DNA from: Desulfobacteraceae bacterium UBA5623
GTDB lineage: Bacteria; Desulfobacterota; DSM-4660; Desulfatiglandales; Desulfatiglandaceae
Direction: 5' to 3'
Length of the DNA: 52,086 nt
NCBI GenBank assembly: GCA_002424495.1
Contig: DIKH01000397.1
Coordinates: 54,222-106,307 of the forward strand
Shown here: piece after piece, positions 15,107-31,400 of the stretch
Layout of the letters: the number at the start of each line of letters is the position of its first letter
How positions within the stretch are numbered: the stretch's first letter is position 1
Position numbers and translations under genes: made by a program
The notes under the pieces: generated by a model
The model's database searches: none
The model's input: the letters and a program-made list of their open reading frames with translations, nothing else
What the model was told of the DNA's origin: nothing

Positions 15107-16278
15107 TATTCAGCTTTCCTTGCCATCCGTGCCATAAACAGGTTACGTTCGTAATCCGTTTCCAATTTAAAGTCCGGCACCAAAGCCAAGGCACGAAGGA
15201 TACCGGTGCCGATTCCTCGATATGGCAATTCCTTGGTTGCGAACGAGGCGATAAGGGGATTGCGGATGACCGACACGCCATTGCTGATGTTCTCAATAGT
15301 CAGATTATTCGGCAACGCACCAGGGCTGATCAATTCGATGCGATTGTCAAAAATCATAATGCGCCAAGGCGCTGAAATGAAATAGTCCCGGTGCAGAAGC
15401 ATGTTGACTACGAGTTCCTCGATTGCAACGGCAGGGATTTCCAGATCACCTTCAGTATTAAAATCCTTGTCGCTTTGTAATCTGCGAAGATTCCGGGTGA
15501 TAAATGACATGGTGCGGGTATGCAAGTCGCGCAGACAGCCACCAATGTCCTCACTGTCCCTATATTTCACGCCCGCTGGGTCATTACCCACGAAAGAGAC
15601 GGCCTTGACGACAAAGGCAGGACGATAACGTTGTGGATCCCGTCCGAACAGAAGCAAACCCGCGAGGTTGAGGGTCTCGTCTTTGGCAAGACCCAAATTG
15701 TTCAAAAGCCGGGCCATCGTCAGGCCGGAGTCTTCCAGCGCCTGTTTCACGGATCGACCGTGTTGTTTTTGAAAGAAGCCGTTGAAATGGCCATCGTCCA
15801 ACGAGTCCAGGGTTGTCCCTTCAACAGGGACTTCATCGGCATGAACAAGACCTGCGCGTTGCATCATCCGCTGAATCTCCTCACGGGAGGTGACCGGTCG
15901 CTTGTTGGCCGCCGATTTGACCCAAAAAACCCCTTCATTATCCATGTAGGGTTTTGAGATGCCTTCGGGAATGTTGATGACCATGACCAATTTTTCGTCA
16001 ATGATAACATTATCGATTTTCGGGTTGATCGACGGTCGAATGAAATCGGTCGCTGCATCGGAGATGATCTGATTGATTCGGCGGATATCATCGGGTGCTA
16101 CACCGATGACAGATCCAGAATCGTCCACACCGATGAGCAGTCTTCCCCCTTTGCTGTTTGCAAAAGCCACCATTTCCCCAACAAGAGATTTGGCATTGGT
16201 GACTTCCTGGTTCCGCTTGAACTGTGTGCAGGAATCTTCTCCGCGCCCTATCAATTCAATTAGTTCAATTGAGTTCAT
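15106..16278 (-). CDS. AlbA_2 (Schlafen-like) / HATPase_c_4 domain protein, short form (usually auto-annotated as RecG-like helicase or transcriptional regulator)
   Basis: The N-terminal reads EDSCTQFKRN...VAFANSKGGRLLIGVDDSGSVIGV (AlbA_2 signature). The later motif ELVVNMLLHRDY...IELISPGALP is HATPase_c_4-like. I prefer ATG 16278, which has GGTGGAG upstream; the ORF track start is 16311. Its stop overlaps the pglZ start by 1 nt (TAATG). Confidence 0.7.
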   Translation of the reverse strand: MNSIELIELIGRGEDSCTQFKRNQEVTNAKSLVGEMVAFANSKGGRLLIGVDDSGSVIGVAPDDIRRINQIISDAATDFIRPSINPKIDNVIIDEKLVMVINIPEGISKPYMDNEGVFWVKSAANKRPVTSREEIQRMMQRAGLVHADEVPVEGTTLDSLDDGHFNGFFQKQHGRSVKQALEDSGLTMARLLNNLGLAKDETLNLAGLLLFGRDPQRYRPAFVVKAVSFVGNDPAGVKYRDSEDIGGCLRDLHTRTMSFITRNLRRLQSDKDFNTEGDLEIPAVAIEELVVNMLLHRDYFISAPWRIMIFDNRIELISPGALPNNLTIENISNGVSVIRNPLIASFATKELPYRGIGTGILRALALVPDFKLETDYERNLFMARMARKAE

Positions 16279-16420
16279 GATTAAAACTCCACCTTTCTCC
16301 ATTGCCATCAACCCATTCCCCGTCTTTCCCTTTCTCCAATTCGCCCTTGCCTTCGTCCGTTTATCATGGCAAAAATATCTTTAATTTATCTTTTTATTTT
16401 AAATGGTTAAATGATTTTCG

Positions 16421-16465
16421 GTCTAAAAGTCCTGCTAAAGTCCGTCTAGTTTCCGTCTAAGATCC
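16421..16465. repeat. Four tandem ~11-bp direct repeats (GTCTAnnnTCC)
   Basis: The units are gtctaaaagtcc, tgctaaagtcc, gtctagtttcc and gtctaagatcc, placed head to tail. They straddle the stop codon of the 559-aa gene and lie upstream of the 390-aa gene. Confidence 0.7.
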
Positions 16466-18125
16466 ATTTAGCATGCCGGCCTGGGCCTCCCTGTGTTCTG
16501 ATACTCCTATCATTCTTGGACATTTCCTGGAGCAAGTTACGGATTTTGTTCTTTTTCTGTTCATGGCTCAGGATGTCCGGCAGTTTTTCATAGAGAAGAT
16601 TGTCAATTTCACTCCGGCTTGCGGAGCCAAATTTTTTAATAAAAGCAAGTATCATTTGCTTATAATGCCCTTTGTCAAATGCACGATACCGGATATAGTC
16701 AACCTTTCCCTGAGTTGCCTCGGCAATACGGCCAGCCACAAAAAGATTCGGTCGACGACCTTCAATAAGTCTAATTCTTTTTAATCGATTGAATTCTTCA
16801 TCTGAGAGCTGATATTTTTTTTGGACCTTATCGAGGGCGATAACATCGAACAAACTAAGATTGGTATTTTTCATCAGAAGCTTTGTATAATTTTCGTTCA
16901 ATATTTTTCCAAGCAGCCGGACTTTAACCCGCTGGGGATCAGAAAGATCATAGTCTGGCATGGGGAAAAATCTGCCACGCTGCAAGTTGAAAATCCTTTT
17001 GATGCCGCTGCCGATGGTATCAATCATCTGCAAATTGACCATAGCATCGGTTAAAAACTGGTTTCTGTAATATTCAGGTGGTGCATCAAGACGGATGACA
17101 TTTTCAACACTCTCAGGAAGAAACGAACCTCCATTGACGAAAAACAGAGAATCTTCCTCCTCTACAACATTAATTCTCCCCCTGAGAGCATAATCCTGAT
17201 GTGCAATACAATTATGAAGAAGCTCACGGATAACCCATGAATCATACTGGGTAATCTCTACTGGAAAAAGGGAATGGTCTCGCATGTAACGGTACGTGAG
17301 ATTGCGAATTCTATTGAACAGGTGGTTGGAATTGAGAAGAAATGGCGGTCCAAAATGTTGATAATCTTTTTCCATGCCGCTTTGGTCCCTCAGAATCCAG
17401 CTTATTCTGGCTATTGCCGGTTCAAGGTGGTATTCAGATTCCTCCCGCCCTAATAGAATAATAGCTGTAGTGGTTATTTTACCGTTTTTCAGGACCTTGG
17501 CTTTGTTGAGAAAGGTTTCATCTCTCCATTCTTCCACTTCGGAGGCCAGGTTGGGATACTTGGACCTGAAAAATTCCCTGGCACGGGCGATGGCAGCAGG
17601 GTCAAGATCTGTAAGGCTGGCATTCGGACATATTTCCCCTGACCAATCCGGTTGAGTAACTAGCAGGATAAGCTCATGTTCATGGGGATTGAGCGGGCCA
17701 ATGGATTCTCCGTCCCGGCCATAATGATGTCCTTTCCAGGCTGTGGGCACACCCGGCCGGGCTGGGGGAATTTCAAACATTACCACGCGCCCCTCTGGCA
17801 GATGCAGTTCGTGGATTTCTGCAAATGTCAGCCGGTTGGATGTTTGATCCGCAATTTCCTTTTTCAGGTTATCCAGGTCCGCTCGATCTAGGCGGAAATC
17901 CGACCCCACGATCTTTCGCGGGTGGTTCTGAATACCAAAGATAAGCCATCCTGCTTCTTGTCTTTTCAAACGTGCTTCATTGCTGAGCGCCGAAAAATAC
18001 TGCCCCAGTTTATCGAAATGAAACGATCGGGATGCTTGCTTGAATTCAACCCATTCGATTTCAGCCGGCAAGGCCATTAGTTCGCTTAGTTTTCGGTGTA
18101 GCGCCTGAGAGTCATAAGCCTTCAA
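16446..18125 (-). CDS. AlbA_2 (Schlafen-like) / HATPase_c_4 domain protein, long form with C-terminal winged-helix-like tail
   Basis: 559 aa. It has EIEWVEFKQ near the N-terminus, then IRELLHNCIAHQDY...FFVNGGSF, then a basic helical C-terminal region. Its ATG overlaps the pglX stop by 4 nt (ATGA). Confidence 0.7.
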   Translation of the reverse strand: MKAYDSQALHRKLSELMALPAEIEWVEFKQASRSFHFDKLGQYFSALSNEARLKRQEAGWLIFGIQNHPRKIVGSDFRLDRADLDNLKKEIADQTSNRLTFAEIHELHLPEGRVVMFEIPPARPGVPTAWKGHHYGRDGESIGPLNPHEHELILLVTQPDWSGEICPNASLTDLDPAAIARAREFFRSKYPNLASEVEEWRDETFLNKAKVLKNGKITTTAIILLGREESEYHLEPAIARISWILRDQSGMEKDYQHFGPPFLLNSNHLFNRIRNLTYRYMRDHSLFPVEITQYDSWVIRELLHNCIAHQDYALRGRINVVEEEDSLFFVNGGSFLPESVENVIRLDAPPEYYRNQFLTDAMVNLQMIDTIGSGIKRIFNLQRGRFFPMPDYDLSDPQRVKVRLLGKILNENYTKLLMKNTNLSLFDVIALDKVQKKYQLSDEEFNRLKRIRLIEGRRPNLFVAGRIAEATQGKVDYIRYRAFDKGHYKQMILAFIKKFGSASRSEIDNLLYEKLPDILSHEQKKNKIRNLLQEMSKNDRSIRTQGGPGRHAKWILDGN

Positions 18126-21100
18126 GTTTGTTTTTTCTCCTTCCGCGCCTTTTGCTTATCATTTATGTTCAAATGGATATCATTGACTCGATCGCCGGTG
18201 AATTCCCCATCTTTCCAGAGCCACGGATATTGTTCCTTCGGGCGAAATGGTTCCTTGCCCCGGTCCTTTTTCCAATCTATATTCGGCTTCCAACGGAGGA
18301 TTCCAGCTCCTTTCCTCCCGCCTGGAATATCCTGGGCCAAAAAGGGCCGAATATTTAATCGAACCCCGTCATTAATATCGGGTTCCCATCCTATAGGCTG
18401 ATCTTCGATTGGTTTCCAGCGCAGAAAAATATCAAACGGCGGTTCACCTTCAATGATTGCGATGAGTCGTTTCTGAAGCTCCAGGGCTGCGGCCAGACGG
18501 TCTTCCGCGCCGCCTTCTCCTCGTTTGACCCCTTCTCTTTGGCGGGTAATCCACTCACCGAGATAGCTATATGTTAGATTTTCCAGAAGTCGCCGTCCTT
18601 TTCCATTCCCTTCGGCCAGTTTGTGGTAATTCACGAGGGCATGAAACCCGTCTCGCCTGCGGCCATCCCATATGTGCCAAATAAAAGGCCGGTGATGAAA
18701 CAGGTTGCAGTGTTGTTCAAAGAAATGATCGCGTAGCCATTCATCCAAGTTGTAAGCATTTGCCCCTGTGGCTTTGATCAGTTCCTGTTCCACTAATGGT
18801 GACCAATCAGGTCCAAAAGCAGCGACAAGAAGTATGCGAAGCCGGCTATCCGCAGTTTCTTCTCCGCGAACCGAAGGAATGCAGACAATCCCATCTTCAT
18901 CAGTGTATTTTAAAAGTTCTTCACATTCGTTCACCCATTCCCGCTGTTCGTCAGCAAGTTCCATCTTAGGGTCAAGTTCCACAGGCCAGCGGCAGCCTAA
19001 AACCCTCGTCACAGCTACTTGCAACGGATAATCGCTCTGTGCTGGATGACCATGGAAGATCCATTGGGTGGGATCGTCAGAATAAAGTTGTGGCAGGCCG
19101 TTGGGATATTTTTCTTCGGCTACTTTGGTCCAATAGTCGAGGTCGAACGGAACCTTCACAACGGTCGCATTGTTAACCTTGATTCCATCTTCGATAACGT
19201 TGAGCTCTTCCTTGAATTCCGGTGACAAGCAGAAAGTCCAAATTGCCTGAAGTATCGTCTTCTTGTGAGGAATGATTGCAGTAACGTTACTATCAAAATA
19301 TGCGCCACTATAGAGCGAGAAGGTCAAATCTCCCATTAGTTTTACGACTACACCATGTTTACCCCATGCCGTGGTTCCCTGCAACCGAGCGAAGTTGCGC
19401 CCGTTCTCAGCCCAGTCAATAGCGTATCGCATCCCGCCAACGAATCCATTAGATTCAGGTGTTCCTTGAAATGGACGCCAGCGTTCATCAAATGTTGGCA
19501 ACTCCCACCAATTACGGCGGAAACAGCCATCATCCCCGGTCTTGATTCCCTGGGGAGAGTTAGCATACCCACCCAGTGTTTTTACACTACCATGGGCTTC
19601 TAATGTGATCCGGGAGTCAGGACCATTAAGGGCATCTTTCTGTAACACAGTTTGCCACTCGTTAATCGCCAAGCCTTCTGCCTTCTTTTGAATTTCCCCT
19701 GTACTAGCCAAATCCACGCCACCATATTTATGTTCAGCAGAAGGTAAATCGCTTGTGATAATTAGGAGAGCGACGTTTACTACCTCGCCGCTTATCGTCC
19801 CGAAGGCCCCAGGTCCCAGCTTTATCAAGGCATCAAAACGAAATGATTTTAATATCCGTTTACGCAACGCTGAATATGCAGGTAATGAAAGCCAATTCTG
19901 CGGACACACAATCCCCAGTGTTCCAGATTTCTGTGCAAGTTCCAGGGAGCGATCAAGAAAAGCAGTTGCCAAGTCTTGCCGAGAGTCATTGTAATAAAGT
20001 CCGATGAAATTTTTTAAACTCTCCGACTGCTTACCGCGAGCTAGATACGGAACGTTGGTAACAATCAAAGCATAATTTCCCGCGAGAAGTTTAACGGCCT
20101 TGAGCATACCCTTTGCGGCCACCCCCATCTCCACCTTCTCGTCACTCATCTCCTGCGTCAACGCACTGTCGAGAACGGGTTCTATGCTCTTCCAGTCCTG
20201 AGAAAAAAGTGAATACTCCCTCAACATGTGCCGTGGGTTAATAAGGCTTCCTAGAGTCTGAGCATCCTTGAATAGGTTGTAAAGCTGGTCTATATGGAAC
20301 GAGAGCGAACCGTCATTACCCACTAACGTCAGCCAATCTCCTTTCTTGGCGTTGATCGATAACCCCGAACAGGCCACATTTAACTCAGGCAATTGCCTGT
20401 AACCGCCAGCGCCTGGATACCTCCAGGCCGTAAGAGCTAGGGCGAACGCGGCCAGCTCGACACACCGATTGTCTATCTCCAGACCGTGAAGGTTTTCGCA
20501 CAGCACGGCATCCACTGCCTCGCGGGTGGAAAGCCGATCCAATTCCATACGCATAGCTACAAGCATCAAGAAAGCAGCTACCAGAAAATGACCTGAACCA
20601 CAGCAAGGATCGAGGATTTTGAGTTCGCTTAAACGCTCCGGCCAGCCGTCAAAGGTTCCCGTTGCCGGTGTCCATGTCCCATTTTCCTGCTTAACAAGCC
20701 TAAGATATTCCAATGGAACGCTAGGGAGGGCCATCAGGCGACGGCAATCAGCCTCGGTCTGGCATTTTTCCCATTCCTCTTTCAGCCTTCCCCCTTCCTC
20801 ATTGAGCCTTTTCCCGGCCCACCATGCTCCCAGAGAATTATCGAGTAGGAAGCTTACCATATATGGCTCAGTGAAAAGCTGGGTCACCGCCGGCAGTTCA
20901 TCAGCGCCGATTTTATTACCTGATGCGTTTACTTCTTTTTTTCGTTTACCTTGCCAGAATTGATAGACCCATCCTAGTGAATTGCTCGCCGTGAAAATCG
21001 CAGGTTCCAGGCCATTGAGCAAATTTTCCAGCTTCAGTCGATGCTCGCGGGCAAGATTAACATTGAGAACAGGATCATTTGGTCGAAAAATTTGAGGCAA

Positions 21101-21514
21101 CATACTTTGGGCAAATTCACTGGCCAGTGTCCAGAGATCCTTCCCATCTTCTTTTGCCAGTTCCTCGCATTCCTCAAGGCTTATGGCGACACCCGTCTCC
21201 AGCTCTATAAGGAGATCATTTTCAGCCAGAAAACGGGCAAACAGCATTCGATGCCAGTGCTCATAGGCGCATTCCCGCATAAGATGGGTGAGATCCATCT
21301 CACCTTTCCGATTCTGCTTGTCACCCAACTGTCGTGCCCTGGCGCGCAAATGGTTCCGCAGCATACGCTCCTCAGGAGACATGTGGCCATAAGGCTCATG
21401 ATGATGCACGGCAATCGCCTCTAATGCTGCTTTTGCGCCTGCCTCAGCCACACCTCTTGCTTCAACGATTGTCCGTTCCAGTTTATTGCGTAGCTCTGTC
21501 GAAAGTGGGTTCAT
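18122..21514 (-). CDS. pglX: BREX N6-adenine DNA methyltransferase PglX
   Basis: 1130 aa. The SAM motif I is LDPCCGSGHFLV (20585..20614). The catalytic motif IV variant is TNVPY (20045..20056). Size and position match type 1 BREX. Confidence 0.9.
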   Translation of the reverse strand: MNPLSTELRNKLERTIVEARGVAEAGAKAALEAIAVHHHEPYGHMSPEERMLRNHLRARARQLGDKQNRKGEMDLTHLMRECAYEHWHRMLFARFLAENDLLIELETGVAISLEECEELAKEDGKDLWTLASEFAQSMLPQIFRPNDPVLNVNLAREHRLKLENLLNGLEPAIFTASNSLGWVYQFWQGKRKKEVNASGNKIGADELPAVTQLFTEPYMVSFLLDNSLGAWWAGKRLNEEGGRLKEEWEKCQTEADCRRLMALPSVPLEYLRLVKQENGTWTPATGTFDGWPERLSELKILDPCCGSGHFLVAAFLMLVAMRMELDRLSTREAVDAVLCENLHGLEIDNRCVELAAFALALTAWRYPGAGGYRQLPELNVACSGLSINAKKGDWLTLVGNDGSLSFHIDQLYNLFKDAQTLGSLINPRHMLREYSLFSQDWKSIEPVLDSALTQEMSDEKVEMGVAAKGMLKAVKLLAGNYALIVTNVPYLARGKQSESLKNFIGLYYNDSRQDLATAFLDRSLELAQKSGTLGIVCPQNWLSLPAYSALRKRILKSFRFDALIKLGPGAFGTISGEVVNVALLIITSDLPSAEHKYGGVDLASTGEIQKKAEGLAINEWQTVLQKDALNGPDSRITLEAHGSVKTLGGYANSPQGIKTGDDGCFRRNWWELPTFDERWRPFQGTPESNGFVGGMRYAIDWAENGRNFARLQGTTAWGKHGVVVKLMGDLTFSLYSGAYFDSNVTAIIPHKKTILQAIWTFCLSPEFKEELNVIEDGIKVNNATVVKVPFDLDYWTKVAEEKYPNGLPQLYSDDPTQWIFHGHPAQSDYPLQVAVTRVLGCRWPVELDPKMELADEQREWVNECEELLKYTDEDGIVCIPSVRGEETADSRLRILLVAAFGPDWSPLVEQELIKATGANAYNLDEWLRDHFFEQHCNLFHHRPFIWHIWDGRRRDGFHALVNYHKLAEGNGKGRRLLENLTYSYLGEWITRQREGVKRGEGGAEDRLAAALELQKRLIAIIEGEPPFDIFLRWKPIEDQPIGWEPDINDGVRLNIRPFLAQDIPGGRKGAGILRWKPNIDWKKDRGKEPFRPKEQYPWLWKDGEFTGDRVNDIHLNINDKQKARKEKKQT

Positions 21515-21554
21515 TTATGTTCCCAGATGTTCGGATTGCTTGAATTCCGAAAGA

Positions 21555-22295
21555 CTATGTATTTTCAATGTAACTAATTAATATTTTGAAGTTCTTACGA
21601 ATTATATTATCAGTATCTTCGAAAGATTTAGCCCAGATGACTTTCAGGTACTCTATTATCAGCTTCGTATCTTCAGGCTGAGCTGGAATACCTTTGATTT
21701 TAACATAAGGGCCATCCGTTTCTGTTAGAACTCGATCGGAGGGAATCCTCTCGATGATTTTTTGGCCGTTCTTAGATTTTATCATTGCAGGATTAATTGA
21801 AAAATAATGGCCTGCATTAATAAGTTTATCAAGCAAATTTAGGGGACCGTTGTACCAGTGAAAAACAGCTTTTTTGAGTTTATTTTCATTCACTAAATCA
21901 AAGAGACTTTTTTCGGCGCGCCGTGAATGTAAACTAATAAATCGGGGCCGGTCTTTTATTATGTTGAATATTCTTTGAAGGGTATCAATTTGCATCTGCC
22001 TTTTAGAGGCATCTTTTTCAGAAAAATCTAATCCGATCTCACCAATATAAGACGTTTTAATAGCAAGTGTCCTAAATAGATTTTCTTCAAACTTTTTGTT
22101 ACCCGAAAGCATCGGATGGTATCCGAGCGCCAACCGAACATGTTTAAAACCCACGAAATGAGGATAGGCTAAATTGAAATGTTCTGGAAGACTGGTTACA
22201 GCTACTGTTATTATGCCTTTGTCCTCTGCTTTTTTGGCAATTTCGAATGGTTTGGAAAATTGATCTATATGGCAATGTACATCAATCATGATCAA
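21555..22295 (-). CDS. qatD: TatD-family metal-dependent hydrolase, QatD
   Basis: 246 aa with IDVHCHID at the N-terminus and LTETDGPY near the C-terminus (TatD signatures). It overlaps the qatC stop (ATGA). Confidence 0.8.
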   Translation of the reverse strand: MIMIDVHCHIDQFSKPFEIAKKAEDKGIITVAVTSLPEHFNLAYPHFVGFKHVRLALGYHPMLSGNKKFEENLFRTLAIKTSYIGEIGLDFSEKDASKRQMQIDTLQRIFNIIKDRPRFISLHSRRAEKSLFDLVNENKLKKAVFHWYNGPLNLLDKLINAGHYFSINPAMIKSKNGQKIIERIPSDRVLTETDGPYVKIKGIPAQPEDTKLIIEYLKVIWAKSFEDTDNIIRKNFKILISYIENT

Positions 22296-23662
22296 TTCCT
22301 GTAGGTACTAGCCTGTCGTTGTACACGATGTGTTGCTTTGTCGCGTAGTAAGCTCCTAACCTCATCCAATGCTCGAAAAACGACGTTTCCATAATCTGGT
22401 AATTTTGAAATATCGAGATTTCCATTTGCCAAGAGTAAATCGGAGATTTCTTTCCCTGTTGGATTCTTTGACATGAGAGACGCATAAGCCCTGAAATCAT
22501 CCACTAACCCCTTGCTTGAATCTAAATCAACCTCGCCGGAACAGATATCTCTTCCGTAGACTTCAGTATCCAATCCAACTTTATTGAGAGCTGCCCTTCT
22601 GTATATGCAAGGCATACATCTGCCGCATTGTCTTGCAGAGCGTCGTATCCAGGTTTTTCTATGATGAGCTTTTGCGCATGAAACAGAAAGGTTAAAAATA
22701 TTTTCCAATAATTCTCTATTTTGGCATTGTTCAACGCATTCACCCTTGGTCTTAAATTCAAATGGATTCAGCACCCTGTTCGCAATACCTACGCGCTGTA
22801 ATACATGATTGATACTTGTTAAAAAGAAAGGGTGAGCAGTCCTGGTGCTACATGAACCACGACGAGATGGTGTTAAAGGGACGTTTAACGCAATGTTACC
22901 ATTTTCAGGCATGATCAAATTTATATTTTCTCCTGCAGTGGAGGCGACATATATGCCTAAGCCAATAAATAGGATAGAACGACTACGGAAAGATACTTCA
23001 TCGCCTGATGGCGTCTGTCCAGCTCTGACTTGAACGAATTTGACCCGATCACGGTAATGGCCTCTCAATTCATCGATCAAATTTTTTTGGTCAGATTTCG
23101 GCCCACCAACAGCCGGGTCATAATGCCCAACGAATTTAATAGTTGCTGCAGGGTTAGACTCCAACAAGTCTATTGCCCCTATCAAAGAGTCAAGGCCGCC
23201 TGAAAAAAGGCTTATTGTAATTGGCATTGTTTCCTTGATGAAAAGTCCGTACCGATTCCTTTTGGGACGAATCAAACTGCAATCTAAATTTCGATATGAA
23301 ATTTTCCACAAATCACCAGTCAGAAAGGATATTGCACTGTTAAAACTGTCAGCGTTTTGATTCCATAACTCAGGATTGGAGACAGGAATTTCGACCTGCA
23401 ATTGTCGCGTCCAATTATCGATTGAAAGGGATCTCGGTACAAGCTTGTCAATGCAGTAAACAACTGTCGATATAAAAAGAAAATCTATTGAGGGTTTAGG
23501 AGGCAAATCGCATTTATCAAGCAACATTGAAAAATCGATATCGATAGAGGACGAGAGACCGGTGGTACCACTGTTAAGCGTAACAATTGCGAATTCGTTC
23601 TTCGTTGACTCTTGCGGATTTATAGACACAGTGACAATCATATTAGCCCCCGAAAATTTCAT
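22292..23662 (-). CDS. qatC: QueC-like PP-loop ATPase, QatC
   Basis: 456 aa with the PP-loop LFSGGLDSLIGA and a C-terminal Cys cluster CGRCMPC. An alternative ATG at 23641 would remove the 20-nt overlap with qatB. Confidence 0.8.
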   Translation of the reverse strand: MKFSGANMIVTVSINPQESTKNEFAIVTLNSGTTGLSSSIDIDFSMLLDKCDLPPKPSIDFLFISTVVYCIDKLVPRSLSIDNWTRQLQVEIPVSNPELWNQNADSFNSAISFLTGDLWKISYRNLDCSLIRPKRNRYGLFIKETMPITISLFSGGLDSLIGAIDLLESNPAATIKFVGHYDPAVGGPKSDQKNLIDELRGHYRDRVKFVQVRAGQTPSGDEVSFRSRSILFIGLGIYVASTAGENINLIMPENGNIALNVPLTPSRRGSCSTRTAHPFFLTSINHVLQRVGIANRVLNPFEFKTKGECVEQCQNRELLENIFNLSVSCAKAHHRKTWIRRSARQCGRCMPCIYRRAALNKVGLDTEVYGRDICSGEVDLDSSKGLVDDFRAYASLMSKNPTGKEISDLLLANGNLDISKLPDYGNVVFRALDEVRSLLRDKATHRVQRQASTYRN

Positions 23663-24374
23663 AGGTATCTTGCAGGATATTATCCGTGATACTTTGCCCC
23701 TCGGCTCCTCCCCAATTGATCTGGCTTAAATCTCTCTCAGACGCCTTCAGTGCTAAAGAAGATTTTATGGTATCAAAAATACTGTTTAAATATGAATCGG
23801 TATTTACCCTCCCGATTCGGTTCACTAACCGTTCATAAAAGACTCTGCAAAACTGTTCGTAGAGATAATAGCCAAAAAATTTACTTAGCAAGTCTTCAAG
23901 AGCTTCTCCTTCCATGACTTGCTCTAAAACTTCCTCTACTTGTTCAGGAGTTTCCAGGCCACCAAGAAGCTCATCCATTACCTTCGAGAGGGCATTCCTG
24001 GCATCAGAATCATTAATCGTGCTTGCCGGACCGCCAAGCTTATCAATAAGTGCAGGTATTATTTCGCCTGCAGGCTTTCCAGCAAATTCAGAAAGGCCGT
24101 AGGATTCAAGAGTTCGCTGAAGACCAACAGAACCGACAGAGGAAATAAAGTCAGCGACCCTACGTGCCGTATTCTGGGCAGACCTTCCTGCACCGATTGC
24201 TCCTCCCCCTCTGGAGATATTGCGTGCCCCTCCGCTGGTCCCAATAAATCCATGCAAGGTATCTCTTGCAGAACCAGGCGAAACAGAACCACTTCTTGCA
24301 GTTCGCGTTACCTGGCTTTTCAGATCTCCCCAATCAGGAGTGGACGGAGCTTCGTATCCGGTTGATGTGCCCAT
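23643..24374 (-). CDS. qatB: QatB (small Gly/Ser-rich N-terminus protein of Qat systems)
   Basis: 243 aa starting MGTSTGYEAPSTPDWGDL. Its position between the KAP NTPase and the QueC-like gene matches QatABCD order. The call rests mainly on context. Confidence 0.6.
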   Translation of the reverse strand: MGTSTGYEAPSTPDWGDLKSQVTRTARSGSVSPGSARDTLHGFIGTSGGARNISRGGGAIGAGRSAQNTARRVADFISSVGSVGLQRTLESYGLSEFAGKPAGEIIPALIDKLGGPASTINDSDARNALSKVMDELLGGLETPEQVEEVLEQVMEGEALEDLLSKFFGYYLYEQFCRVFYERLVNRIGRVNTDSYLNSIFDTIKSSLALKASERDLSQINWGGAEGQSITDNILQDTYEIFGG

Positions 24375-24380
24375 CTCACC

Positions 24381-26351
24381 TTATCCTTTTTCGGATGTTT
24401 CAATTTTCAATGCTTTCTCCAAAGCTGTCTTAATTTGGGATTTTCTTGAGGTTAACCTTTTGATGACATCATAAAACCGGGATTTTATCCCTGGTTTTTC
24501 CTTAAATAATCCTGCCATATCATACGCAATTGCTGGCGGAATTGATTCGATTGGGGCCTTTGAAAGTGCATTCACGTAGGATTCAATACTACCGGAAACA
24601 TCTTTGTGAATAATCTTTGCAAACGCATCATATCCGGCCTTTTCATCCGGGTGACGTTTAATATGGGTCTCCAATAAGTCGAGAAATGACACTCTCTCGT
24701 CTTCTTTAAAGGACTGTACCGCTTCGACTGCTTTATTTGCTACCACAGTATTATCAGAGAGAATTTCGGATAATGCCAAACGAACGATCGGGGAAATAAG
24801 AGCTGTACCTGAAAGCGTTGACTCCAATCGATCTCTTGCTATCCAGAAATAGTCCCGCAGATCAACGTCTGATAATCGAGGCTCCATTGCCAGCCAACGT
24901 TTAACAGATTTTGTATCCCATCTCGGCTCTGAAATTTTCACGTTTTCTAATTTTTCAACATCGTCGTCAGCTTCAAGAACAAGGTTTTCCCATTTTTCTA
25001 TCTGTTTTGGGAAGCCGTCCTGGCTTTGCTGCCAATCGAAAAGGGCTTTGAATTCCTTTATATGAGCGTATTCTAAGATCATGAGTTTGACCAGGACATC
25101 ATCCCTGATATTGCTTAAATTCGCGACCCTTGCGAGTTCCTTTCTTAATACAAATGCATTGAGGAATCTTTTGATCTGGCGCGGGTTCCCTTTCAGTCCT
25201 TCCGTAATGAGTGGAGAGGCTTGAGATGAAAAAGTCAGGCTCCTGGATAAATCTTCGGGCAATTTACCAATCGCCTTCTCCACATCAGCATACCCAAAGA
25301 CAGAATATCGGTTTTCTTCTCGTGCCTCCTTGCAACAGGTTACACACTGATCGAAACGACCAGAATCAAGCATTCTTTGACAAAAAAGGAGCGTCATATA
25401 AGTTTCAACTTCAGCAGGTGATAGGCGCGGAAGACGGTATGGAACTTGGATAAGCTTTTCAAGGTAATCAGTAATTAAACTGTCAGCGGTTTCGCTATCT
25501 TCTTGACCTCGCATCTGATCTGGAGTGTAGGTGACAGCGATTGCGTGCCTTACAATCCTGGGATCTGCGCCGATCACAAAAGCCGTTTTATCCACGTTCA
25601 AGAAAAGCTTGATTGCTTCAAGATTCTCAATGATTCTTTCAGGTGAGCATCTATCAAGATCATCGACCAATATAACAAGGCCCTGAATATCACTATCCTT
25701 AAGCATCTGAGAAAACCGATCGCGAAAAGATCGAACATCCAACGGACTTGCTGGTGTTTTGTCCGATTTAATCAGTCCTTCCCAGTTGACCTTATCAGTA
25801 CCAGAGGCTTTCTCACCCTTTGGAGCCTCAGGACTTTCCTCTTGCCCTTCATCACCGCAAATTCCTACAAGGCCCATGGCAGATCTCATTAGGGAAGGAA
25901 CAATCGTTGCACCACCTGAGATATAAGCGGCAATAGCGGGGAGGGCCACTTCTTTAAACCCGAGCCTCGCGGCACGCATCCAATTGACAGACTTCATTAA
26001 AGACACGACCTTGTCTCTGACTTTGGGGCCGAATCGCTGATGTTCACCCAACTGAAGCAGGACAGAGCTGATAATTGCAGATTTCGCATCATCATATCCT
26101 TCGAAAAGCCATCCGTTGAAATAAAGGCAGGCAATCTTTTCATATTTAGCCCTCTCTGCAGGATCAGTGTAACTATTCGGATCTAAATCCGATTCAAGCA
26201 TCTTCATGATGCTTGTTTTCCCACCGCCCCAATCCCCAAAAACTCCAATCGTGATCGGCAATAAATCAGGGTTTGTGACAACTGAGCGAATCAAGTCTGC
26301 ATGCACCCTGAAACCAAGAAGATCGAGGGTTGTCTCATTATCTGACCACAT
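24381..26351 (-). CDS. qatA: KAP-family P-loop NTPase, QatA
   Basis: 656 aa with N-terminal Walker A GDWGGGKTS and Walker B-like LVILVDDLDRC. It is the first gene of a 4-gene cassette. Confidence 0.75.
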   Translation of the reverse strand: MWSDNETTLDLLGFRVHADLIRSVVTNPDLLPITIGVFGDWGGGKTSIMKMLESDLDPNSYTDPAERAKYEKIACLYFNGWLFEGYDDAKSAIISSVLLQLGEHQRFGPKVRDKVVSLMKSVNWMRAARLGFKEVALPAIAAYISGGATIVPSLMRSAMGLVGICGDEGQEESPEAPKGEKASGTDKVNWEGLIKSDKTPASPLDVRSFRDRFSQMLKDSDIQGLVILVDDLDRCSPERIIENLEAIKLFLNVDKTAFVIGADPRIVRHAIAVTYTPDQMRGQEDSETADSLITDYLEKLIQVPYRLPRLSPAEVETYMTLLFCQRMLDSGRFDQCVTCCKEAREENRYSVFGYADVEKAIGKLPEDLSRSLTFSSQASPLITEGLKGNPRQIKRFLNAFVLRKELARVANLSNIRDDVLVKLMILEYAHIKEFKALFDWQQSQDGFPKQIEKWENLVLEADDDVEKLENVKISEPRWDTKSVKRWLAMEPRLSDVDLRDYFWIARDRLESTLSGTALISPIVRLALSEILSDNTVVANKAVEAVQSFKEDERVSFLDLLETHIKRHPDEKAGYDAFAKIIHKDVSGSIESYVNALSKAPIESIPPAIAYDMAGLFKEKPGIKSRFYDVIKRLTSRKSQIKTALEKALKIETSEKG

Positions 26352-26414
26352 TATTAAGATCCTCTTAATTGCTTACAATAATTATAGGTTTCCTATAAGC
26401 ATATATTTTCGTCT

Positions 26415-29400
26415 TTATGAAATCACGATTGGACCATCTTCCAGCCTTTCCAGCAATTCCTGTTCAATCCTTTCAATCCAGCTTGTGACGTCCTCTTTTG
26501 TTTTCAAAGTCCCACTGGTCAACCGGACAGTCTGCGTCTTGGGTTCAAGCAGCTTTGCGGCTGCTAAAGCCGCGTTGCTGAATTGTGTCGGCAATGCGTC
26601 AATCTTGGTTTTCCAATTCGTTAAAGGTGTTTCCTCCAGGGTGCGAAGGAGGCTTGAATCATCGCCTATCGATAGGAATGGTATGACAGCGATACCTTCT
26701 GCATCGAGAATATCCTGTTGCTGATCAGAAGTGATTTTTACCCAATTATCGTTTGATTCAAGCGCCGCCACTTCATCATCATAAACGGACTTGAAATCAT
26801 CATAGGCCTTCTTTACAGCCGATCTTAACGCAGTCACAGCTTCCTTGTGAATCGCAGGAACAGGGTCAGTTTTATCAAGAAGGCGTTTTTCATCACGGAC
26901 TGCATTTGCCTGCTGATTAAGATTTTCTGATTCAGGCAGGGTTTTGCTGTGTTTCAATAGACGCTGAAGTGTTTCCCATGCCGGTTTGCGTTTGGCGGCC
27001 AATTCGGCCAAATCAGCCCATTCCTGGGCCTGTTTTGAGAGCGTGTCATGCTGGTTCAAAATCTCGGCGAGTTGTTCGTTTCCGGCTAGTGCTCTCAAAT
27101 TTTCAAGATGGTTGGTTGAGGGACGTTCCGGCATCGGTGGTGCGCCCCCAGCCCGATCTGCAAGGTCTGCTAGGTGAGCGAGAAACTGACCTGCGGCGAT
27201 TGATTCTTCATTGGGTTTACATGGGATTCCTGCACCTTGGAAGAGTTTACGTAATTTGATGCGGCCTCTTGCATCGATGGTTATTGTTTCCACCCGGAAA
27301 TCACTGACTGAGATCTTGGCCTGGTCAAGTTGACCCTGTTTGAGTTGAACGCCTTTGTGAGTGGCCCGAATGTGGCCAGTCGTGAACAGCGTAATCAAAG
27401 CGGCGTCAATTGCATCACGGGGCCAGCCATAAGGGGTGCTCTCAAAGGCATCCCGAACATCTTTGCCTTTCTTCCCGGAACCGATCTCTGAAAGCACGGA
27501 TGAACATACGGCGTGTTTCTCAGGTGCATCATTCCAGTCAATTGCTTGGAGGGCGGCCTCATCTCCATTTTTGGCTCGATTGATAACATTGTGCCAACGG
27601 TCATCATCTGCATCCTGGAAATTCGGAAAAAGCCGGTCCAAGGATATTTCAGCGGCTGAATTCACTTTGTCTTTCAGGGTTAGATCAAAGCGCTCCTGGC
27701 CGCCTCCTTGGATGACTTTGGCAGCGTTGATCACATCCTGAATAATTCTGTTTCTTGTGGTTTCCGCTGAGCCCATACGGGTTGACATGGAATCGCGGGC
27801 TTCCTGGCCTTCCGGTGCCGTGGGTGTTCCTTTGAATTCGATTGTTGTCTTAGCCGCTTCATATTCAACGATTGCCTTTTTGAGGTCGTCGGCACTGGCT
27901 TTGGGAACATATACATAGATGACCGGGCTATCCGTTCCGGCGGCCCGGGCGTCCGCCAGCACAGTGCTTTCATTTTCGCCCCAACCATCGCGTATCCAGA
28001 CAGGAATTTCATTCCCTTTGACTTCAGGCGGTTCAGTGCCAAAATGAATTGAAAGCCTGCGAGCCGCTTTACACTTGCCTTGAAGTAGCTTGATTCCATT
28101 TAAGGAAGTGGAACATGCAGCATTTAACAGAGAAGAACGCTTGCTGGATAGCGCGGTCAGGTCGTTATTCAATTTTGTCTGACGGTTACGGAATTCACGG
28201 TCCCACTCGCTGCTTTCTCTGGTCTGAAGACTGTATTCTTCATCAATCTTGATAAGTTTCCCCTCGTCAACAAGTTTATCGAGAATTTGAGGGATCTCTT
28301 TCCTCAAAACCGCGCCATCATTTGCAAGATCGCTGATAAGAAGATCCGCCAGGGTTTCAGCGGTGGCCCGAACCCCGATATCGGCTACTTCTTCACGTGG
28401 AAGTTTTCGAATCAGGAAAACAAGTCCACAAATCCGTTTGGCAAGTTTGCCGCCCTGAGTGCCATCGTCAAAGTTTCGAATCGTTTCATCGATCTCCCGC
28501 AATAGAACACCGGTTCGCAGGAGATCAGGCTGAAGCTGACCAAAGATGAAGTCAGCCGGCATAACCGTACCGAGGGTTTTTTCGGCCATTTCCTTAACCG
28601 CATCATAAACAATCCGCAACTGGGTCCGGACCTGGCTGGCTGTACCGGGAAGGTCGATAGCACGCAAGACGTGTTCCCAAAAGCGGCGGCGAACGGGTAA
28701 GAGAGGATAGTCATCCACAATTATTGCGCGGTCTTCGCTCCGAGGGCCAATCCGTGTTCCTGAAAGCTGACGGTCTATTTCCCCGGCATAAGAACCGAGC
28801 TTATCTTCAATGGATTTGCGCTTATCGGCTTTTTTAGCAAGGACCACGCGACGGGTTACCGTTTCCACATCCGAATCTGATAGCTCAACAGGAATCGTAA
28901 AACGGTCTCTAAGGCGCTGCAATAAGGGCACGCTACCGGCCAGGGCTGTTTGCCCTGCCCCTATGAGTAAGACCCGGCTATCGAGCTGTTTGCAGATGGC
29001 TTCGGCGATTTCCATAACATCAGTGGACCGTTTCGCACTGTCCCCGATGAACAACTGGATTTCATCCAGCACAATAGTCGTGCATGGGATTTCACCATTT
29101 GTGGAAAGGACTTTGCGGACAATTCGGATGAACTCTTCCGTTGAAATATCTTCCACGACAGGGAACTGGGCACGAAACGCTGCTCGGGCTTGTTTCAGGT
29201 CCGGGGCAAATGCGGGATCAGCCTCCAATATTGCTTTGGCCAGAATGGGACTGACATAAAGATCATGCAGCTCGCTTTGAAAGTCTTTTCCGGCGGATTC
29301 CACCGAGGATTTGACGTTTTCATATATGTTGTTTTTCTGAAGCCAGAGACAGAACTGTGCCTGGGGGAGGGAGCTTGGCAGACCTTTGGAGCGTAAAATG

Positions 29401-29861
29401 ATACTCAACACGGCAAGGCGAACGCTTTCACCGCCTCCGGAAGGCAAGGTCCCTGACGCCGCATGGAGTCCCCCGCATCGTTTACCCAATGTATCCAGTT
29501 CCTTTAAAAGATCACTTACCTCATCCGGCAACTGAGTAAGCCCCCTGGCGGTAGCCCCATCAGATTCAAACTGGGTATCCACCCACAAATGCCTGAACAT
29601 TTTTAGAAGGTGGGATTTGCCGCTTCCAAAAAAACCGCTTACCCATGCGGCAGGCTGAACCGTTGAATCGGCATTCCCCAAATAGGATTCAAGGATTCGG
29701 GTCAGGCCACCCTTATACTGGCCTTCGCAGACAAAGTGCTCCAGCTCATAACGCAGGGTTTCAATCTCTTTCTGGGTTGTCGATTCCGTTACTGCGGCCA
29801 CACCATCGTTAAGCAGCTTTGTGACAGCAGGGTCTCGCTGAAATATCTCACGGTTTTTCAT
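26415..29861 (-). CDS. brxC: BREX large ATPase BrxC/PglY
   Basis: 1148 aa with Walker A GFFGSGKSH and Walker B-like IVLDEIQ. It follows brxB with a 1-nt overlap. Confidence 0.9.
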   Translation of the reverse strand: MKNREIFQRDPAVTKLLNDGVAAVTESTTQKEIETLRYELEHFVCEGQYKGGLTRILESYLGNADSTVQPAAWVSGFFGSGKSHLLKMFRHLWVDTQFESDGATARGLTQLPDEVSDLLKELDTLGKRCGGLHAASGTLPSGGGESVRLAVLSIILRSKGLPSSLPQAQFCLWLQKNNIYENVKSSVESAGKDFQSELHDLYVSPILAKAILEADPAFAPDLKQARAAFRAQFPVVEDISTEEFIRIVRKVLSTNGEIPCTTIVLDEIQLFIGDSAKRSTDVMEIAEAICKQLDSRVLLIGAGQTALAGSVPLLQRLRDRFTIPVELSDSDVETVTRRVVLAKKADKRKSIEDKLGSYAGEIDRQLSGTRIGPRSEDRAIIVDDYPLLPVRRRFWEHVLRAIDLPGTASQVRTQLRIVYDAVKEMAEKTLGTVMPADFIFGQLQPDLLRTGVLLREIDETIRNFDDGTQGGKLAKRICGLVFLIRKLPREEVADIGVRATAETLADLLISDLANDGAVLRKEIPQILDKLVDEGKLIKIDEEYSLQTRESSEWDREFRNRQTKLNNDLTALSSKRSSLLNAACSTSLNGIKLLQGKCKAARRLSIHFGTEPPEVKGNEIPVWIRDGWGENESTVLADARAAGTDSPVIYVYVPKASADDLKKAIVEYEAAKTTIEFKGTPTAPEGQEARDSMSTRMGSAETTRNRIIQDVINAAKVIQGGGQERFDLTLKDKVNSAAEISLDRLFPNFQDADDDRWHNVINRAKNGDEAALQAIDWNDAPEKHAVCSSVLSEIGSGKKGKDVRDAFESTPYGWPRDAIDAALITLFTTGHIRATHKGVQLKQGQLDQAKISVSDFRVETITIDARGRIKLRKLFQGAGIPCKPNEESIAAGQFLAHLADLADRAGGAPPMPERPSTNHLENLRALAGNEQLAEILNQHDTLSKQAQEWADLAELAAKRKPAWETLQRLLKHSKTLPESENLNQQANAVRDEKRLLDKTDPVPAIHKEAVTALRSAVKKAYDDFKSVYDDEVAALESNDNWVKITSDQQQDILDAEGIAVIPFLSIGDDSSLLRTLEETPLTNWKTKIDALPTQFSNAALAAAKLLEPKTQTVRLTSGTLKTKEDVTSWIERIEQELLERLEDGPIVIS

Positions 29862-30421
29862 CAGTCGCTTACCCCGTTATGTAAGGTTATGGGAACGGCC
29901 AAATAATTCCAGCCATCCCGCGCATCGAGGAGCCGATAATTGTTATTGTCAAACTCACCTGGAAAAAAGAGCAACAAACGGCCCCGAATGTCATGGATGA
30001 CTTCCTTCAAAATTAAAGATACCTTGGTGAAACCATATAAACTTGCCACTCCATACACGGCCACCACGCTTTTTGCATCGACATCTGAGTCTGTTAATAC
30101 CTTTCTAAGTTCATGCGATGCAAACTGCAAAAATCCGCTTTGAAGTTTCATTGTCAGATCTTCCGGAGATTCAAAATACAGGTCTCTATATTCTGTGTTG
30201 GCCATCCAGGTGGCGAAGGTCTTTGTAAAATTAAAAGGCTTCCATTTATGCTTGGCATCGATTGTTGCCATTTCAAAAAGCTCAAGCCGGGCACGCAGCT
30301 TACGTTCGTCCTCTTTGGGGTAGACCACAAAGATGGCTTTTTGGTCTCCAGCAAGGTTGCGTTGCCACGGTGCAGAGATATGATTACGATAGCGAGTTGC
30401 CAGATCTTCAATCCGTCCCAT
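29861..30421 (-). CDS. brxB: BREX protein BrxB (DUF1788)
   Basis: 186 aa with C-terminal LLLFFPGEFDNNNYRLLDARDGWNYLAVPI, typical of DUF1788. It overlaps brxA by 14 nt. Confidence 0.85.
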   Translation of the reverse strand: MGRIEDLATRYRNHISAPWQRNLAGDQKAIFVVYPKEDERKLRARLELFEMATIDAKHKWKPFNFTKTFATWMANTEYRDLYFESPEDLTMKLQSGFLQFASHELRKVLTDSDVDAKSVVAVYGVASLYGFTKVSLILKEVIHDIRGRLLLFFPGEFDNNNYRLLDARDGWNYLAVPITLHNGVSD

Positions 30422-31238
30422 GTATTAAATGCCTTTCATCTTCGGTAAACAGGCGGGTAAATGAAACCTCCACAACCCCGCCTGCCTGACTCAAGTCCAA
30501 AAATCCTAATCGTTTGGCATCAGTCGCCAGAGAGACCAGTTCCTCCTGGGGTGTATCGAGCACTTTTGCCCAAAGTGTATTGAATAAACCGTTGCCACGA
30601 GCCCCAAGAACATAACCCAAGACAAGGGCGTAGGCTGTGACAATAGGGGTAGGCGTTACTTTCTGACGAATTTTTCGAACACGTCCTTTTAAATGCCCAG
30701 ATTGGGTCCATGAAGATGATGTATTACGCACGACCTTATCTAGAATATTGTCATTTAACCTGTCTTCAAGGCCTTCTATTAGTATCTGGGCCATTTTTTG
30801 ACGTACCAGTTCTTCACCAGTTTTCATTTGAAGCACAGGAGATGTAGTAACCCTAAGAAGAGGGTCCCGAGCTAAAGCAGTTAAGAGAGCAAGAAGCGGG
30901 CGACCATTCTCATCAAACTGCCAAAGTTGGCGCATAACACGAAAAAGAGGGATAGACGGATCAAGTCCATAAAGCTCGCTCAGGCGTTGGCATGTAAGTT
31001 TGCGTGTTGAAACGGTCTGCTTACCTAGACAATTATGATCAACGATGGCTGATACATAGGCTTCACGTGGAGCACCTTGCTCCTGGTCTTCAAACAATAA
31101 AACCAGTTCTTTTAACATGATAGTTCTGCTGGTGTGTGTGCCTTTATCTCCGATTCGAAATCCCGCCTTAATCCAAGGCTGAAAAACTCCTGAATCCTGC
31201 AAAAGAACATTTTCTTTGAGTATTGGATCTTTCTTCAT
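30408..31238 (-). CDS. brxA: BREX protein BrxA (DUF1819)
   Basis: 276 aa and the first gene of the operon directly upstream of brxB. The assignment rests on position and size; no diagnostic motif was checked. Confidence 0.7.
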   Translation of the reverse strand: MKKDPILKENVLLQDSGVFQPWIKAGFRIGDKGTHTSRTIMLKELVLLFEDQEQGAPREAYVSAIVDHNCLGKQTVSTRKLTCQRLSELYGLDPSIPLFRVMRQLWQFDENGRPLLALLTALARDPLLRVTTSPVLQMKTGEELVRQKMAQILIEGLEDRLNDNILDKVVRNTSSSWTQSGHLKGRVRKIRQKVTPTPIVTAYALVLGYVLGARGNGLFNTLWAKVLDTPQEELVSLATDAKRLGFLDLSQAGGVVEVSFTRLFTEDERHLIHGTD

Positions 31239-31251
31239 TGCAACCTTCTAG

Positions 31252-31277
31252 TTTTGCCGGCAAGATTGCCGGCAAAA
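31252..31277. promoter_or_regulatory. Tandem palindromes TTGCCGGCAA x2 (operator-like) just upstream of brxA
   Basis: The sequence is ttTTGCCGGCAAgaTTGCCGGCAAaa. Each 10-mer is self-complementary, and the whole 26-mer is nearly symmetric. It lies 14-39 nt upstream of the brxA ATG (31238). Confidence 0.5.
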
Positions 31278-31400
31278 TTTCGTTTTAAAATAAAACTGAA
31301 TATAAGATTTGTCAAGATGCTAAGCAAAATTTCTCAGTTTTATAATTTTCAGCCTCTGGAGGCGATTGATTGAGGATTTCAAGTTGTTTTTCTTTTCATT

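Follow-up and report, generated by a model that had tools for sequence, protein, structure and literature searches.

How does one complete defence system come to lie inside the operon of another, and does its position there mean that the two work together? The question is raised by a 52,086-nucleotide stretch of DNA from Desulfobacteraceae bacterium UBA5623 (contig DIKH01000397.1; hereafter the window), in which the four genes of a QatABCD system stand between brxC and pglX of a type 1 bacteriophage exclusion (BREX) operon. The explanation that accounts best for the evidence, and which we hold with considerable confidence, is that an intact, horizontally mobile QatABCD was captured in the brxC-pglX cargo slot of a type 1 BREX operon, itself intact, on a Desulfobacteraceae-like chromosome. 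The operon comprises twelve genes on the minus strand, in the order brxA-brxB-brxC-[qatA-qatB-qatC-qatD]-pglX-[two Schlafen-like genes]-pglZ-brxL. All 12 of its open reading frames (ORFs) are intact, and the six BREX type 1 core genes each have a strong PADLOC match. Its parts, in the direction of transcription, are as follows.

31287..31315, minus strand: candidate operon promoter (TTGACA-17-TATTTT) upstream of brxA, 10 of 12 consensus matches
30408..31238, minus strand: brxA (PADLOC BrxA, 3.3e-104)
29861..30421, minus strand: brxB (PADLOC BrxB, 1.2e-79)
26415..29861, minus strand: brxC, ATPase (PADLOC BrxC, E=0, full length; Walker A GFFGSGKS)
26352..26414, minus strand: brxC-qatA spacer, or Qat leader, 63 nt (ribosome-binding site AAGAGGA; TATAAT at 26381-26386)
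24381..26351, minus strand: qatA, KAP-family P-loop NTPase (PADLOC QatA, 1.1e-106; Pfam KAP_NTPase, 3.3e-38)
23643..24374, minus strand: qatB, putative QatC substrate (PADLOC QatB, 8e-12; N-terminal MGTS motif)
22292..23641, minus strand: qatC, QueC-family PP-loop enzyme (longest ORF from 23662; PADLOC QatC, 1.9e-96; Pfam QueC)
21555..22289, minus strand: qatD, TatD-family nuclease (longest ORF from TTG 22295; PADLOC QatD, 3.1e-57; Pfam TatD_DNase, 1.2e-44)
21515..21554, minus strand: qatD-pglX spacer, 40 nt (ribosome-binding site GGGAAC in its last ~25 nt)
18122..21514, minus strand: pglX, BREX adenine methyltransferase (PADLOC PglX, E=0; aligned to PDB PglX/BrxX structures)
16446..18125, minus strand: second-slot cargo gene 1, 559 residues, Schlafen AlbA_2 + HATPase_c_4 (Pfam)
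15106..16311, minus strand: second-slot cargo gene 2, 401 residues, Schlafen AlbA_2 + HATPase_c_4 (Pfam)
12761..15106, minus strand: pglZ (PADLOC PglZ, 2e-302)
10713..12758, minus strand: brxL, Lon-like ATPase (PADLOC BrxL, 1.7e-290; Pfam BrxL_ATPase/BrxL_N)

A sequence-only reading of this DNA had taken the insert for a complete QatABCD cassette in its usual order, and profile searches bear this out. The four contiguous same-strand ORFs of 21555-26351 match the PADLOC Qat models as qatA-qatB-qatC-qatD, the same collection of hidden Markov models calls all six BREX genes, and Pfam recognizes KAP_NTPase, QueC and TatD_DNase. Every motif quoted in that reading (GDWGGGKTS, MGTSTGY, SGGLDS, CGRCMPC, HCH and ETDGPY) was located. 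The PADLOC match to QatA covers residues 3-652 of 656, with the Walker A motif GDWGGGKT at residue 39. QatB begins MGTSTGY; its PADLOC match (8e-12) is partial and its matches to the PDB QatB chains 9vll_A and 9zee_A are weak (5.5e-4), while the identical protein of sister contigs carries a precomputed PF28083 (QatB) assignment. QatC, covered by its PADLOC model over residues 29-443 of 456, carries SGGLDS (residue 154), STRT (272) and CGRCMPC (346) together with an upstream cysteine, and these motifs and zinc cysteines align with the PDB QatC structures 9zee (9zee_B, 5e-57) and 9vlk. It has the Qat-specific T-x-T in place of Tyr/Asp as well as N- and C-terminal extensions, and the PDB entries that it matches best are QatC structures. 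QatD has HCH (the HxH motif) at residue 7 and also ETDGPY, and aligns end to end with TatD-type structures (3gg7, 7e-41; 9xsn, Hydrolase TatD, 2.3e-34).

The QatB-QatC complex has been described as the core of the Qat system, and QatBC alone gives E. coli protection in published assays; the motifs found essential are the MGTS glycine motif of QatB (in vivo) and the PP-loop serines, T-x-T and four zinc cysteines of QatC (PMC13279940). All of these are kept at the locus. Comparison with L111, the locus with the nearest Qat cassette, gives dN/dS values of 0.09-0.19 for all four genes, which are under purifying selection.

The gaps of 63 nt and 40 nt that had been read on either side of the cassette are exact (26352-26414 and 21515-21554). 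An ATGA overlap between qatC and qatD, also claimed from the letters, is absent; the junction reads AGGAATTGATCATG, in which a TTG start would overlap the TGA stop (TTGA) and the ATG at 22289 lies 2 nt past the qatC stop. The ATG is the more likely qatD start because it has an AGGA ribosome-binding site. For qatC, the start is probably the ATG at 23641, 1 nt past the qatB stop, and gene callers choose this same start on sister contigs (449 residues). Homology with BREX relatives extends no further than the brxC stop codon and picks up again ~25 nt ahead of the pglX ATG, such that the last ~25 nt of the qatD-pglX spacer, with GGGAAC, are homologous to the pre-pglX sequence of the relatives. The insert also has the features of an embedded system in the sense of Payne et al.: brxC lies upstream of the cargo and pglX downstream, all on one strand and with zero pseudogenes, and each system occurs apart from the other, BREX with an empty slot (L018) or other cargo and Qat outside BREX. 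The arrangement is identical on 8 contigs from JGI, ENA and Logan samples.

That Qat was acquired secondarily by the BREX unit, as had been proposed, is well supported by three independent lines of evidence: composition, a variable slot in close relatives, and a cassette that travels. With respect to composition, a lower GC content had been noticed in a few hand-counted lines, and the full statistics agree. The Qat genes are at 42.3% GC, with 38.1% at third codon positions (GC3), against 48.6% GC and 46.6% GC3 for the six BREX core genes; flanking host genes are at 47.6% and 52.0%, respectively. The minimum GC3 of any contiguous Qat-sized (~4.8 kb) stretch of the concatenated BREX coding sequence is 45.2%. 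The lineage of the cassette stays at 38-44% GC, under flanks of 46-56% GC in most related loci; the exception is L029, with 38.5% in the cassette and 37.7% in the flanks.

The second line comes from a scan for BREX relatives, one genome per species, which returned 14 loci with BrxC 86-94% identical, labelled Desulfobacteraceae or Desulfobacterales metagenome-assembled genomes; the brxC 3' end is visible in 9 of them. Something occupies the brxC-pglX slot in 8 of these 9. In L018 the slot is empty and pglX follows after 24 nt. L009 holds a PIN/Phd toxin-antitoxin pair on the opposite strand; L006 and L008 hold two ORFs that are weakly TIR-like by PADLOC; L016 has a RhuM-family gene (PDC-S05) and two small ORFs; L010 a RhuM fragment and Gabija; and L007 a RhuM/Fic gene (PDC-S23), an unknown 396-residue ORF and a Gabija distinct from that of L010. 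L011 and L017 have at least 460 nt of non-pglX DNA. Qat genes are absent from all 9, which bears directly on whether relatives carry the same four genes by vertical descent. In the three relatives in which both internal slots are visible (L008, L010 and L016) both are filled, as in the window, and both are filled too in an unrelated BREX locus, L058. The two filled slots had been thought unusual; since both are filled wherever both are visible in this clade, and in L058 as well, double occupancy is not unusual here, and cargo at these sites has already been published.

Several ORFs that fill the brxC-pglX slot of other loci have no Pfam match (L006:7419-8668, L008:13643-15394, L007:6019-7209, L016:3666-4926 and L058:5148-6452). 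By PADLOC the L008 pair is weakly TIR-like, and the ORFs of L007, L016:3666-4277 and L058 have no match. By virtue of their embedding, the uncharacterized slot ORFs of the relatives are candidate defence genes.

The third line is the cassette itself, as QatA relatives 74-82% identical are sited in many different contexts. Qat stands directly after a type I restriction-modification (R-M) operon in L020 and L021, flanked by insertion sequence elements between pglX and pglZ of another BREX locus in L022-L024, in a BrxR-linked island in L029, between two transposase genes on a 4.4-Mb chromosomal contig in L026, in other defence islands in L027 and L028, and beside housekeeping genes in L025. A gene for a YgjP-like/WLM-type metallopeptidase lies directly upstream of qatA in three of these loci (L020:8205-8933, L021:8205-8933 and L029:3787-4770), and its 3' end survives as a non-coding remnant upstream of qatA in L025 and L027. 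Conserved cassette ends were sought by comparing flanks; those of cassettes in other contexts do not align with the window outside coding sequence. No transposase or integrase was matched among the window ORFs scanned. Two possible origins were rejected. For a phage-borne origin, the search of viral contigs gave no real QatA relative, only a 25-residue match, and nothing in it points that way. An enterobacterial or known-plasmid origin of the locus is ruled out, as megablast of 21000-27000 matched neither the E. coli genomes nor the plasmid collection. Scans of the window for tRNA genes and Rfam families found nothing, which excludes a tRNA-linked integration site and a known RNA element there.

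Some of the history of the insertion can be read from L111, in which the nearest cassette (QatA 91% identical) occupies the same brxC-pglX slot. The order in L111 is the 3' end of a RhuM-family gene, a 219-nt non-coding spacer, qatABCD, essentially the same 40-nt spacer, and pglX. The 63-nt leader of the window is matched by the final ~55 nt of the L111 spacer, and among the cassettes compared this leader is common to L111 and the window only. The rest of the L111 spacer is homologous to the regions preceding pglX in L016 and following brxC in L017, and includes ATGTAACRCGATGTAAC, a conserved intergenic element of tandem ATGTAAC half-sites found downstream of RhuM-type cargo in the slot (L016:5030-5046, L017:2430-2446, L111:343-359 and L112:157-173). 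This element is missing from the window, with 3 mismatches allowed. On the simplest reading, the slot once held RhuM-type cargo, Qat was added just upstream of pglX, and RhuM was then deleted in the lineage of the window. A target-site duplication at L111 (ATCCAGA / ATCCGAA flanking the cassette) was considered and rejected, the repeat being too short and imperfect.

On these comparisons the brxC-pglX slot most likely acts as a point of exchange, with different defence modules between conserved ends, and Qat as a self-contained second layer of immunity, presumably independent of BREX in mechanism. QatC, a QueC-like ATP-dependent PP-loop enzyme, would bind QatB and is proposed to modify its N-terminal glycine at the MGTS motif, while QatA (the KAP NTPase) and QatD (the TatD nuclease) may widen the range of phages covered. 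BREX would act separately, through PglX methylation and the exclusion of unmethylated DNA. Transcription of Qat would proceed by read-through from the brxA promoter, with a ribosome-binding site for each gene, and the likely benefit to the cell would be a backup when phages evade or inhibit BREX.

Five points weigh against this account or parts of it. For RhuM, the opposite order of gain and loss relative to the window is also compatible with the comparison to L111. Qat in BREX in three lineages could be more than chance co-location. The promoter and terminator scans used E. coli-type consensus sequences and may miss the signals of a Desulfobacterota-like host; an internal promoter at the leader TATAAT (26381-26386) is possible; and both co-transcription and activity at the locus are deduced from sequence alone.

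Of the competing explanations, the one that survives best concerns transcription. Qat may be an insulated module with its own promoter in the 63-nt leader and separate regulation, so that pglX-brxL would be expressed through read-through from Qat or from another internal promoter. A candidate promoter had been pointed to at 26379-26400, and part of it stands: a perfect TATAAT occurs at 26381-26386, ~30 nt upstream of the qatA start, in a leader that recurs in L111, there as part of the 219 nt of non-coding DNA ahead of qatA. There is precedent in the Salmonella BREX locus, where internal transcription start sites occur and brxC is separated from pglX by a partial terminator (PMC9009780); because of the terminator there, the brxC-pglX junction can be regulatory in other BREX loci. 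The remainder of the candidate does not stand. No acceptable -35 hexamer accompanies the TATAAT, the aligned hexamer in L111 reads CATAAT, and the sole scan match in the brxC-qatA spacer (26378-26350) has a -10 hexamer that runs into the qatA ATG; on these grounds an internal promoter in the leader, as predicted, is not supported. The region has 29 promoter-like sites where shuffled sequence gives 24.8 +/- 5.4, which is no enrichment, and the best sigma-70-like site, a consensus match only, is at 31315-31287, upstream of brxA. Nor did the scan find terminator-like sites on the coding (minus) strand in either spacer flanking Qat, including the one after brxC. From the lack of terminator-like sites, the chance level of promoter-like sites and the position of the best one, read-through co-transcription from brxC into Qat is inferred as the most economical reading, and we regard an insulated module as possible, though clearly the less probable arrangement.

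Two further observations belong to the regulation of the BREX operon. A palindrome with a 13-bp stem, TTTTGCCGGCAAGATTGCCGGCAAAA, lies at 31250-31279, downstream of the best promoter-like site and upstream of the brxA start codon, and could be an operator or leader hairpin for the operon. The window ORFs scanned include no BrxR-type (WYL) regulator.

The second competing explanation is functional coupling, in which Qat is a preferred partner of BREX, the two cooperate mechanistically, and embedding reflects selection for the pair; Qat might, for example, be a backup triggered on inhibition of BREX, or QatD and QatA might act on BREX-marked DNA. What speaks for it is recurrence. BREX-embedded Qat occurs in type 1 loci in three QatA lineages and two slots: the window with L111, L022-L024, and the L058 clade, whose QatA is 42-50% identical. 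In a sample of 80 metagenome loci with QatA relatives, 71 of them with at least 400 nt of upstream sequence, PglX lies immediately upstream of Qat in 8 of the 71 by tblastn, and a PADLOC census of upstream neighbours finds PglX in 7 of 56 loci. L058 has the order brxABC, an unknown 434-residue protein, pglX, qatABCD, AbiLi-AbiLii, pglZ and brxL. Payne et al., moreover, argue for complementary coverage from embedding.

Other evidence speaks against it. In a neighbour-joining tree of QatA, the PglX-adjacent metagenome loci form essentially one clade, and because of this clustering they represent few independent events; the clade also contains L105, in which Qat follows Wadjet, and its sister branch has a Qat after an Hhe-like gene (L066). 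The closest Qat cassettes, too, follow type I R-M, Wadjet or Hhe-like genes, or stand alone, while in near-identical BREX backbones the same slot is either empty or taken up by RhuM, Gabija, weakly TIR-like ORFs or a toxin-antitoxin pair, and QatBC by itself protects E. coli in published assays (PMC13279940). Since Qat also joins other defence operons, the pattern is consistent with a cassette inserting within or next to defence loci of any kind, and a specific BREX partnership is not demonstrated. Obligatory coupling of BREX and Qat is argued against by the interchangeability of the slot cargo, and functional coupling, which the sequence-only reading had raised, is not supported; we consider mechanistic cooperation improbable. 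Co-regulation, raised together with it, is possible. We are similarly doubtful of the proposal that Qat is a preferential BREX passenger, through synergy and not generic island clustering, with the junction of brxC stop and pglX start a dedicated site of cassette exchange; one conceivable mechanism would be a backup role, with Qat set off once BREX has been disabled by phage anti-BREX factors.

In a more distant group, L092-L108 (mostly human-gut metagenome contigs; QatA ~36% identical), tblastn with the window proteins detected QatA and, at most loci, QatC and QatD as well, whereas QatB was never detected. A HerA/DndH-like ATPase is the neighbour on the upstream side in 13 of them. The group may be a variant system.

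A decaying or neutral passenger is a far weaker alternative. Here Qat would be a non-functional hitchhiker, or its insertion would cripple BREX by a polar effect on pglX, which the 4.8-kb insertion does put farther from the brxA promoter. Against this, all ORFs are intact and catalytic motifs are kept, the low dN/dS was obtained against a locus in which Qat sits in the same slot, the identical arrangement recurs on 8 contigs, and most relatives tolerate cargo in this position, so that we think such a passenger very unlikely. A reading of the four as housekeeping genes of the queuosine, TatD or NTPase kind, passed down vertically and not serving defence, is refuted: QueC and TatD folds do also occur in housekeeping enzymes, but the Qat-specific PADLOC models match at full length, QatC has its T-x-T, terminal extensions and QatC structures as best PDB matches, QatB has its MGTS motif, the genes are missing from the 9 close relatives, and the cassette is mobile.

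The capture of Qat by the brxC-pglX slot has close parallels among known systems. On the plasmid pEFER of Escherichia fergusonii, BrxU sits within BREX with brxC on one side and pglX on the other (Picton et al. 2021, PMC8565348), and the window resembles it in the slot, in co-orientation, and in the nesting of a second defence within a type 1 BREX operon. What pEFER carries there is one plasmid-borne, GmrSD-like type IV restriction gene, whereas here the cargo is a four-gene QatABCD on a chromosome; complementary protection has been shown experimentally for BrxU, and the window Qat is known from its genes. In Salmonella StySA BREX, an ATPase and a DUF4435 gene form a pair between pglX and pglZ (PMC9009780), a defence-type counterpart of the window Schlafen-like genes; its cargo and slot differ from those of Qat, and the partial terminator mapped after brxC there has no detectable equivalent here.

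Payne et al. have surveyed embedding in Hma, BREX, DISARM and type I R-M loci as a guide to function ("guilt by embedding"), finding that most of the embedded genes belong to defence systems and that in 96.7% of cases they share the orientation of their host, and arguing that embedding can yield complementary coverage (bioRxiv 10.1101/2024.01.29.577857). The window follows this rule, its cargo being a co-oriented defence system inside BREX, and two PADLOC candidate-system models, PDC-S05 and PDC-S23, recognize the RhuM-type cargo of the relatives. Neither the main text of that survey nor the 11 supplementary files searched mention Qat, and in the literature searched Qat is nowhere explicitly reported as cargo of BREX. 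The QatABCD systems that stand alone in P. aeruginosa and E. coli (PMC13279940, PMC13376578, PMC13434339) share with the window cassette the gene order and four families, the MGTS motif of QatB, the PP-loop, zinc cysteines and T-x-T of QatC, and the HxH of QatD. Their sequences are divergent, window QatB is shorter (243 residues, against 282-287 in PDB chains), and they are free-standing, whereas the window cassette is embedded in another operon.

The pglX-pglZ slot of the window holds the pair of Schlafen-like genes (15106-18125). L016 has both copies in the same slot, 94.6% and 72.8% identical, and L008 and L010 each have one distant copy there (~27% identity). Schlafen-type genes have been linked to BREX in at least 1017 taxa (PMC12839542), and the window proteins resemble these Schlafen-family RNase/minimal histidine kinase/wHTH proteins in their AlbA_2 + HATPase_c_4 architecture and BREX association; the window differs in having two tandem paralogues, known from sequence.

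The adjacent PglX has ILDPCCGSG as motif I. Its motif IV is NVPY (residues 487-490, window 20045-20056), aligned to NPPY of Salmonella PglX. TNVPY is kept in the clade relatives L007, L008, L010, L016 and L018, and the other BREX loci fetched have NPPY; because it is conserved across the whole clade, NVPY is probably functional. The PglX of L016 (L016:5153-9177) is a mosaic with respect to that of the window, the N-terminal part being 78% identical, the C-terminal part 90% and the part between them 51%. The same locus has BrxC at 89% identity and the downstream Schlafen-like gene at 95%, and this pattern suggests that the target-recognition region has been swapped.

Genes flanking the operon include HdrA-like, MetF/MetV-like and multihaem cytochrome genes and many sigma-54 activators; taken with the labels of the BrxC relatives, they identify the host DNA as a Desulfobacterota-like chromosome. 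Two HdrA-like genes contain an in-frame TGA (32029-32031 and 35866-35868) within the motif FPTNDC(S/T)M*(I/V)ISPKLVE, and ORF callers split both genes. The TGA stands at a position that we take to be cysteine in HdrA homologues, and both codons are probably selenocysteine codons.

Taken as a whole, the locus is a real but fairly ordinary nesting of one defence system in another. Defence nesting at brxC-pglX is already documented, and our understanding of BREX and Qat is unaltered; the sole mildly new point is that Qat has turned up within BREX in three lineages. As a clean natural case of stacked immunity, the locus holds Qat within BREX alongside Schlafen-like genes. The cargo genes of the sister loci are a source of defence candidates, and the near-isogenic BREX backbones, which differ mainly in their brxC-pglX cargo, could be used to test co-regulation or synergy with BREX.

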